Positions 50,101 to 53,100 of a DNA stretch of 64,000 nt are shown one piece after another. Origin of the DNA: Escherichia coli. GTDB taxonomy: Bacteria > Pseudomonadota > Gammaproteobacteria > Enterobacterales > Enterobacteriaceae. Each line of letters opens with the position of its first letter. Position 1 is the stretch's first letter. A program made the position numbers. The DNA is taken from NCBI RefSeq assembly GCF_003334785.1, contig NZ_QOWV01000006.1, one strand, 5' to 3'.

Positions 50101-53100
50101 CATGAAGCGAAAAACCATGAAAATTCGCTCGGGATCTATGAGTTATCCTGGCATCAGGCTATGCAGCGACTGCCGCGTAACCGCTGTCTGGCGACCGGAT
50201 ATTCCTGCCGTAGCCAGGTAAAACGGGTTGAAGGCACGGGGGTACGCCATCCTGTGCAGGCTTTACTGGAGATTATTAAATGATATGGAAACGGAAAATC
50301 ACCCTGGAAGCACTGAATGCTATGGGTGAAGGAAACATGGTGGGGTTCCTGGATATTCGCTTTGAACATATTGGTGATGACACCCTTGAAGCGACAATGC
50401 CAGTAGACTCGCGGACAAAGCAGCCTTTCGGGTTGCTGCATGGAGGAGCATCCGTGGTACTGGCCGAAAGTATCGGTTCCGTTGCCGGTTATTTATGTAC
50501 CGAAGGTGAGCAAAAAGTGGTTGGTCTGGAAATCAATGCTAACCACGTCCGCTCGGCACGAGAAGGGCGGGTGCGCGGCGTATGCAAACCGTTGCATCTC
50601 GGTTCGCGTCACCAGGTCTGGCAGATTGAAATCTTCGATGAGAAAGGGCGTTTGTGCTGTTCGTCACGATTGACGACCGCCATTTTGTGACGTTGTCACC
50701 AGAAAAGTGTGACGCATATTGCTTTTGGTCATTATCTGCACAGTAAACGGTGGTATACTGTGCAGGTCTTGTCTAAAAGCGAGGATGCTATGTCTACTCA
50801 ACTTGATCCCACCCAGCTGGCCATTGAATTTTTACGCCGTGACCAGAGCAATCTTTCACCTGCCCAATATCTCAAACGTCTGAAACAACTAGAACTTGAA
50901 TTTGCTGACCTGCTTACTCTCTCTTCTGCTGAATTAAAAGAAGAAATCTACTTTGCCTGGCGTCTGGGCGTGCATTGATCCTGACTTAATGCCGCAAGTT
51001 CGCCAAATCGACCTGGATTAACCTCCGTCCAGGTTCGATGACCTTCTTAATACTGCTTATCTACCGCCTGATATTGTTCAAAAATAATACTAATCGCAGT
51101 TTGTGTTAAAACGGCGGGTTAGCTTTATGAGATTATTCTTATCGCCCCTTCAAGAGCTAAGCCACTGAGAGTGCCGGAGATAAGCGCCGGATGGGGTAGA
51201 AACCCTTAAGCCTGTGTCGCACAGACTTAAGGGTTTTCTTATTTCTGAACGCTGCACTTTTTTACCTATCTCTTAAATAGTCATTTTCAATACAACTTTT
51301 TCTTTTTCATCACAGCCTTAATGCTCCTTAGATAATAACCATTATCTAACAATGAGATACCTAATTCTTAGCGTGCCTGTTAACCCACACATCAGGGTCT
51401 ATGCTTATTAAAAGCAGGCAAAAAGCATGTTTTACGGTAAAGCCCCTGCGTTTGCTGGGTTGAACTGATAATCATTATCACTAACATGCTGTTATACGCT
51501 GAAAGCGATGAAGTGAGGTAAATCGATGGACATGCATTCAGGAACCTTTAACCCACAAGATTTCGCCTGGCAAGGCTTAACGCTGACACCCGCAGCGGCG
51601 ATACACATCCGTGAGCTGGTGGCAAAGCAGCCGGGTATGGTCGGCGTGCGCTTAGGCGTGAAGCAAACGGGCTGCGCGGGCTTTGGCTATGTGCTCGACA
51701 GTGTTAGCGAGCCGGACAAAGACGATCTGCTGTTTGAACACGACGGCGCGAAGCTGTTTGTCCCGCTGCAAGCGATGCCGTTTATTGATGGCACGGAAGT
51801 CGATTTCGTTCGTGAAGGACTTAATCAGATATTCAAATTTCACAACCCTAAAGCCCAGAATGAATGTGGCTGTGGCGAAAGCTTTGGGGTATAGGCGGTA
51901 CTATGTCTCGTAATACTGAAGCAACTGACGATGTCAAAACCTGGACCGGCGGCCCGCTGAATTATAAAGAAGGATTCTTCACCCAGTTAGCCACCGATGA
52001 GCTGGCAAAGGGGATAAACGAAGAGGTGGTGCGCGCAATTTCGGCGAAGCGTAATGAGCCGGAGTGGATGCTGGAGTTTCGTCTAAACGCCTATCGCGCA
52101 TGGCTGGAGATGGAAGAACCGCACTGGTTGAAAGCGCACTACGACAAGCTGAATTATCAGGATTACAGCTACTACTCAGCACCATCGTGCGGTAATTGTG
52201 ACGACACTTGCGCGTCTGAACCTGGCGCGGTGCAGCAAACTGGCGCGAACGCCTTTTTAAGTAAAGAGGTGGAGGCGGCGTTTGAGCAGTTGGGCGTTCC
52301 CGTGCGGGAAGGCAAAGAGGTGGCGGTGGATGCCATTTTCGACTCAGTTTCGGTTGCCACTACTTATCGCGAAAAACTGGCGGAGCAGGGAATTATTTTC
52401 TGTTCCTTTGGTGAGGCGATCCACGATCACCCGGAACTGGTGCGTAAATATCTCGGCACCGTGGTGCCGGGGAATGACAACTTCTTTGCCGCGCTTAATG
52501 CGGCGGTAGCCTCTGACGGTACGTTTATTTATGTGCCTAAAGGCGTGCGCTGCCCGATGGAACTTTCCACCTATTTTCGCATTAACGCAGAAAAAACCGG
52601 GCAGTTTGAGCGCACCATTCTGGTGGCCGACGAAGACAGCTACGTCAGCTACATTGAAGGCTGTTCCGCTCCGGTGCGTGACAGCTATCAGTTACACGCG
52701 GCAGTGGTGGAAGTCATCATCCATAAAAACGCCGAGGTGAAATATTCCACGGTACAAAACTGGTTTCCTGGCGATAACAACACCGGCGGTATTCTCAACT
52801 TCGTCACCAAGCGTGCTTTGTGCGAAGGCGAAAACAGCAAAATGTCATGGACGCAATCAGAAACCGGGTCAGCGATTACGTGGAAATATCCCAGCTGCAT
52901 TTTGCGCGGCGATAACTCCATTGGTGAGTTTTACTCAGTGGCGCTGACCAGCGGTCATCAGCAAGCGGATACCGGCACCAAGATGATCCACATCGGTAAA
53001 AACACCAAATCGACCATTATCTCGAAAGGGATCTCTGCCGGACATAGTCAGAACAGTTATCGCGGCTTAGTGAAAATCATGCCGACGGCAACCAATGCGC

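Follow-up and report, generated by a model that had tools for sequence, protein, structure and literature searches.

The Fur box of the sufABCDSE promoter in Escherichia coli and its place beside an IscR site

The DNA analyzed here is a 64,000-nt stretch of the Escherichia coli chromosome (contig NZ_QOWV01000006.1 of assembly GCF_003334785.1; hereafter the window) with the gene order ydiJ-menI-ydiH-rydB-sufABCDSE, and its subject is a binding site for the iron-responsive repressor Fur within the suf operon's promoter. A 526-bp intergenic region (59% A+T) precedes sufA, the open reading frame (ORF) of which starts with the ATG at 51526 and takes its name from the annotation of E. coli genomes. 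The 13-mer GATAATCATTATC lies in this region at 51467-51479 on the plus strand, the sole exact copy in the window, and is separated from the sufA ATG by 46 nt. The original prediction, made by a model from the sequence, had singled out this same 13-mer as a match to the Fur consensus about 47 nt before the start codon, and both the assignment and, to within a nucleotide, the distance hold. The 13-mer is enclosed by a perfect 7-1-7 inverted repeat (TGATAAT and ATTATCA about a central C; TGATAATCATTATCA) at 51466-51480, with zero mismatches where 0.20 repeats with two or fewer mismatches are expected by chance per window, and the repeat in turn sits inside a 19-bp site of 9-1-9 architecture. The elements of the sufA promoter (PsufA), numbered from the sufA transcription start (+1), are as follows.

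51464-51482, strand unassigned: Fur operator, 19-bp 9-1-9 site ACTGATAATCATTATCACT, -30 to -12 of sufA, centre 51473 (-21)
51466-51480, strand unassigned: 7-1-7 inverted repeat, the minimal unit for one Fur dimer, containing the 13-mer at 51467-51479
51439-51464, plus strand: IscR type 2 activator site AAAGCCCCTGCGTTTGCTGGGTTGAA, -55 to -30, embedding the -35 element and having one base in common with the Fur 19-mer
51460-51465, plus strand: PsufA -35 hexamer TTGAAC, -34 to -29, its last two bases overlapping the Fur 19-mer (sequence from PMC8561392)
51482-51487, plus strand: predicted PsufA -10 hexamer TAACAT, -12 to -7, its first base overlapping the Fur 19-mer
51494, plus strand: predicted sufA +1 (A), giving a 32-nt leader, placed from published mutation numbering

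The strength of the match was measured with a symmetrized 19-bp position weight matrix (PWM) built from 19 proven K-12 Fur sites, 16 with known centres and three known from footprints, with sufA left out. Coordinates of the footprinted or gel-shifted sites came from Chen et al. 2007 (PMC2189734, Tables 3 and 4), the sequences were fetched from NC_000913.3 with each coordinate verified by its distance to the gene start, and all 16 sites with known centres align in register on AATGATAATnATTATCATT. The sufA 19-mer scores 19.6 bits, first among all window positions and close to the median that the training sites themselves reach in leave-one-out scoring (range 5-28 bits, median near 20, 15 of the 19 at 18 bits or more, lowest 5.3). 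The exact probability of such a score is 1.3e-7 per position, equivalent to 0.009 matches of at least 19.6 bits expected per 64 kb and 0.6 per genome. As positive controls, the ydiE and ydhY sites in the table of Chen et al. were recovered at exactly the predicted window positions, 26334 and 61180. Chen et al. scored the sufA site at 21.3 bits, 13th in a genome-wide table with a 10-bit cutoff, and described a cluster of three sites that overlap within 31 bp, its centre lying 53 nt ahead of the sufA start codon (PMC2189734). That centre translates to 51526 - 53 = 51473, the central C of the 7-1-7 repeat.

The position of the box within the promoter can be fixed from published mutations. In a strain table of the Kiley laboratory (PMC12594620), the "Fur site mutation" of PsufA replaces -26 ATA -24 with TAT; for IscR binding the table lists a deletion that removes -56 to -51 and a C to G change at -50. 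We place +1 at 51494 because it is the sole position giving ATA at -26 to -24 and C at -50 (51444); the Fur-site mutation then maps to 51468-51470, within GATAATCATTATC. The PsufA -35 element is TTGAAC, inside the IscR type II site and 1 nt nearer the -10 element than that of the ydiU (selO) promoter, PydiU (PMC8561392). The -10 element was assigned from the +1 position together with the 16-bp spacing implied by that paper, and with this +1 TAACAT falls on the canonical -12 to -7, behind a 16-bp spacer. With +1 placed in this way, the Fur 19-mer fills the spacer and overlaps both core promoter elements, with two bases in the -35 and one in the -10. A generic sigma-70 scan of the region did not report PsufA, which matches at eight of 12 positions, under the cutoff; this is consistent with dependence on an activator. 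An alternative from that scan, ATCACA-16-GATAAT at 51309-51336, is at chance level and was discarded as a promoter.

Abutting the Fur box on its upstream side, the 26-bp IscR type 2 consensus is matched without a mismatch at 51439-51464, with the -35 hexamer embedded in it, where 0.02 matches with three or fewer mismatches are expected per window. The consensus string used is attributed to Giel et al. 2006; because the sufA site itself contributed to it, the match does not count as independent. Independent support is provided by the published IscR-binding mutations, which in the numbering of PMC12594620 map to 51438-51444, and by the account in PMC8561392 of a -35 element embedded in the site. 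The nine-position IscR motif of Nesbit (AxxxCCxxAxxxxxxxTAxGGxxxT) was also tried; by eye the sufA site fits it only in part, and the 26-bp consensus was preferred. The window holds a second zero-mismatch IscR type 2 match, ATAACCCTTCTGTTTGCTGGTGTTTA at 24602-24627, which by K-12 collinearity falls between selO (ydiU) and rflP. This place corresponds to the IscR-activated ydiU promoter, a model promoter of PMC8561392.

Conservation was assessed with one genome per species, which gave 80 sufA loci spread over about 30 Enterobacteriaceae genera; the alignment holds 81 distinct promoters. A Fur site of 17.1-26.2 bits is present at the equivalent place in all 80 species, with its centre 53-56 nt before the ATG in 76 of the 80 loci. 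Two Kosakonia loci and one of Enterobacter sp. are displaced by start-codon assignment alone, and Intestinirhabdus alba keeps the IscR/-35/Fur-box module, with a 26.2-bit box, ahead of a GC-rich leader about 97 nt longer. In this last species, over the 260 nt before sufA, the -10 hexamer is TAGGCT, not TAACAT. The alignment reveals a near-invariant block at 51459-51487 that extends from the -35 element across the spacer as far as TAACAT, with drift in the leader and in the flank upstream. TAACAT occurs in 78 of the 81 promoters, and the -35 element is conserved as TTGAAG in 69. Constraint on the spacer points to a bound protein, because sigma-70 does not read spacer sequence.

The substitutions that do occur in the 19-mer are of eight kinds, confined to five positions, all of low information in the Fur matrix. 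Their mean cost is 0.27 bits, against 3.81 bits over all 57 possible substitutions (permutation P = 7e-5), so that the changes seen in orthologous promoters are of the sort that Fur tolerates. The commonest form of the 19-mer, AGTGATAATCATTATCACT, scores 22.8 bits, is palindromic over all 19 bp without a flaw, and is the majority form in genera other than Escherichia; in Escherichia, position 2 of the 19-mer (51465) is changed from G to C. These data show strong purifying selection on the PsufA box, shaped by Fur. Within E. coli the 31-mer at 51464-51494, comprising the box and the -10 element, is exact in 5,401 of 5,426 complete genomes. One base outside the 19-mer, at -31 (51463), an A to T change converts TTGAAC to TTGTAC in 589 of the 5,426. 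As a lesser possibility, the Escherichia-specific G to C change at 51465 and this A/T polymorphism may make the balance of Fur, IscR, and sigma-70 differ from one lineage to another.

That Fur binds and represses PsufA and competes there with IscR is taken from published work. Chromatin immunoprecipitation sequencing (ChIP-seq) of Fur combined with transcriptomics placed sufABCDSE among the operons that Fur binds and controls directly (PMC4676285), suf expression is constitutive in a delta-fur strain grown in LB (PMC12533949), and suf is derepressed both in delta-fur and with dipyridyl (PMC7229158, PMC12533949). Repression of the operon by Fur-Fe2+ and its relief by iron limitation are stated in the literature (PMC4676285, PMC7229158, PMC12533949, PMC8593673), in agreement with the iron-limitation induction that the original prediction had proposed. 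Fur[Fe2+] occupies the promoter and keeps RNA polymerase and IscR alike away from it (PMC7229158), and IscR recruits polymerase to the weak -35 element from the opposite face of the DNA (PMC8561392). On iron depletion or oxidation, apo-IscR and oxidized OxyR win, an IHF bend bringing distal OxyR to the polymerase (PMC7229158, PMC8593673).

Projected onto the present coordinates, the switch would operate as follows. When iron is sufficient, a metallated Fur dimer would bind the inverted repeat centred at -21 and block RNA polymerase, as well as IscR, whose site ends where the Fur site starts. When iron is scarce, Fur would lose its cofactor and depart, leaving apo-IscR to bind -55 to -30 and recruit polymerase to the weak -35 element, so that the Suf iron-sulfur (Fe-S) assembly machinery would be made. 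Under peroxide stress, OxyR would activate from about -216 by way of the IHF-induced bend.

Two other explanations of the palindrome were weighed. One is that it serves mainly as the operator of another regulator, such as NsrR or a nucleoid protein, with Fur control exerted indirectly through RyhB or IscR levels. NsrR is reported to repress suf (PMC8593673) and RyhB acts on the suf and isc mRNAs (PMC12533949), but the sequence is near-consensus for Fur and not of NsrR type, the operon is bound as well as regulated by Fur in the ChIP-seq data (PMC4676285), and the promoter carrying the Fur-site mutation has been treated as Fur-blind (PMC12594620); we regard this explanation as very improbable. 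The other, an AT-rich palindrome arisen by chance and conserved merely through the -35 and -10 elements, draws on the base composition of the intergenic region, on the resemblance of Fur half-sites to -10 hexamers, and on two unconserved upstream Fur-like matches of 11-12 bits (described below) that show look-alikes do arise there, but it can be dismissed almost outright, given that only 0.0004 matches of at least 19.6 bits are expected in the 526 bp at local composition, that the conserved stretch is spacer and its substitutions follow the Fur tolerance profile, and that a published mutation within the site was used specifically to abolish Fur control (PMC12594620).

Three points qualify the details of this reading. 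The predicted sufA +1 is derived from mutation numbering; the G to C change at position 2 in Escherichia is the costliest substitution seen (-3.2 bits), making the site somewhat weaker than that of most relatives; and our own PWM gives one strong sufA site with a 2.5-bit neighbour at +6, versus the three overlapping sites of Chen et al., so that PsufA may bind one Fur dimer or more. No observation in this analysis contradicts the Fur-operator reading, and the quality of the motif, its position in the promoter, its abutment on the IscR site, and the signature of purifying selection together lead us to conclude, with very little doubt, that the box is the Fur operator in the sigma-70 promoter from which E. 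coli sufABCDSE is expressed.

The remaining regulatory inputs lie further upstream. We take the OxyR element to span -236 to -197 (51258-51297) and the IHF element -156 to -127 (51338-51367), coordinates attributed to Lee et al. 2004.

51258-51297, strand unassigned: distal OxyR region at the presumed coordinates, with a conserved block at about 51265-51300
51338-51367, strand unassigned: IHF region at the presumed coordinates, with a conserved sub-block at about 51340-51358

Both blocks stand out in the alignment of the 81 promoters. The distal one contains CTAT-N7-ATAG at 51266-51280 plus CAAT, by eye a match to about 11 of 16 OxyR consensus positions. A scan of the suf upstream region for the OxyR consensus ATAG-N7-CTAT-N7-ATAG-N7-CTAT, with three or fewer mismatches, returned no match. 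The original prediction had expected IscR and OxyR sites near the Fur box; the IscR part is borne out by the zero-mismatch site at 51439-51464, and for OxyR there is the conserved block and no match to the scanned consensus. The OxyR site of suf has been described as "located far upstream" (PMC8593673) and a role for IHF at the suf promoter is stated in PMC7229158 and PMC8593673; coordinates for OxyR or IHF at PsufA, and a genome coordinate for the sufA transcription start, were not found in the published text searched.

Two Fur-like matches also occur upstream of PsufA, one at 51331-51349 (centre 51340, -154; 12.0 bits; palindrome AGATAATAACCATTATCT) and one at 51273-51291 (centre 51282, -212; 11.4 bits). 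Two in 526 bp exceeds chance, about 0.06 being expected at 10 bits or more. They were rejected as additional Fur sites, scoring at least 8 bits in only nine of 79 (51340) and 12 of 79 (51282) species and being located in the IHF and OxyR regions, respectively.

As conserved as the Fur box is a 13-bp block, GGGTCTATGCTTA, at 51395-51407 (-99 to -87), which with up to two substitutions allowed is found in all 81 sufA promoters and in 80 of them lies 78 +/- 1 bp from the centre of the Fur box. It can be extended to CAGGGTCTATGCTTA at 51393-51407 (-101 to -87) and is separate from the known Fur, IscR, OxyR, and IHF elements. As an NsrR half-site the block is unconvincing, with about six of ten positions matching a presumed NsrR consensus, and a literature search for the coordinates of an NsrR site at suf found none. 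Its conservation might reflect a site for a regulator or an architectural contact of PsufA outside the published Fur/IscR/OxyR/IHF scheme, although we consider this rather unlikely.

Elsewhere in the window, AATGATTCTTATTATCAAT at 26325-26343 is a Fur site of 18.4 bits located 35 nt before ydiE and present in Table 4 of Chen et al. 2007 (PMC2189734). AATGATAATAAATATCAGT at 61171-61189, a Fur site of 19.1 bits, falls between the genes ydhY and fumD at a distance of 255 nt before ydhY, and is listed in the same table without a supporting reference (PMC2189734). Two further PWM matches of about 15 bits, a level at which about 0.14 matches are expected per 64 kb, are intragenic: TTGGAGAATCTTTATCATT at 23904-23922, within rflP (ydiV) about 20 nt from its 5' end, and TTTAAAAATGCTTATCGTT at 37103-37121, inside ydiP. 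The rflP product is an anti-FlhDC factor.

The regulated operon, delimited from ORFs and genome annotation, has the following layout.

51526-57038, plus strand: sufABCDSE regulated operon
51526-51894, plus strand: sufA
between sufA and sufC, plus strand: sufB
53400-54146, plus strand: sufC
54121-55392, plus strand: sufD
55389-56609, plus strand: sufS
56622-57038, plus strand: sufE

A 1,051-nt query across the Fur box, with ydiH, sufA, and sufB as the genes beneath it, has matches in 5,422 of 5,426 complete E. coli genomes. Directly 3' of rydB, a strong hairpin at 51200-51246 (-20.1 kcal/mol, z = -5.2) is followed by UUUUCUUAUUU. The hairpin, which a simple terminator scan missed, is probably an intrinsic terminator that keeps transcription of ydiH and rydB out of the suf regulatory region.

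The window derives from another strain than K-12 MG1655 and is collinear with it in reverse orientation, window position x corresponding to K-12 coordinate 1764439 + (51473 - x) in NC_000913.3, so that the predicted sufA +1 falls at 1764418. PsufA of the two strains shares gene order, operator centre, mutation coordinates, and a 62-nt core promoter that is identical base for base. The box has the same 9-1-9/7-1-7 motif, at a comparable score, as the classical Fur boxes found at iron-uptake promoters (fhuA, entC, fepA-fes, cirA, fecI, ryhB, and sodA), and as in most Fur-repressed genes it overlaps the core promoter (Chen et al. 2007, PMC2189734). At many uptake promoters, 4-13 sites overlap in arrays with a 6-bp spacing, whereas sufA has essentially one strong site with weak neighbours (PMC2189734). 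Unlike uptake promoters, PsufA needs the activator IscR, and Fur therefore acts there as an anti-activator as well as a repressor (PMC7229158). Another promoter with both IscR and Fur inputs is nrdHIEF. PydiU, at 24602-24627, resembles PsufA in that its zero-mismatch type 2 IscR site embeds a weak -35 element, but it lacks a strong adjoining Fur box, the nearest PWM matches being those of ydiE (26334) and inside rflP (23913).

Work on the PsufA Fur operator goes back to 1999-2004 (Patzer and Hantke 1999; Lee 2003; Outten, Djaman and Storz 2004), and the literature on suf also cites Lee, Yeo and Roe (2008) and Mettert and Kiley (2014). The box has already been mapped, mutated, and modelled, and its confirmation adds nothing new to the biology. 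The value of the result is that of a clean positive control, in which a reader given only the DNA letters recognized an operator that is real and gave its coordinates correctly. Comparison across species provides a compact picture of an IscR/-35/Fur/-10 module that is rigidly kept across about 30 genera, with the Fur site as the switch for the stress-resistant Suf Fe-S assembly pathway under iron shortage in E. coli and its relatives.

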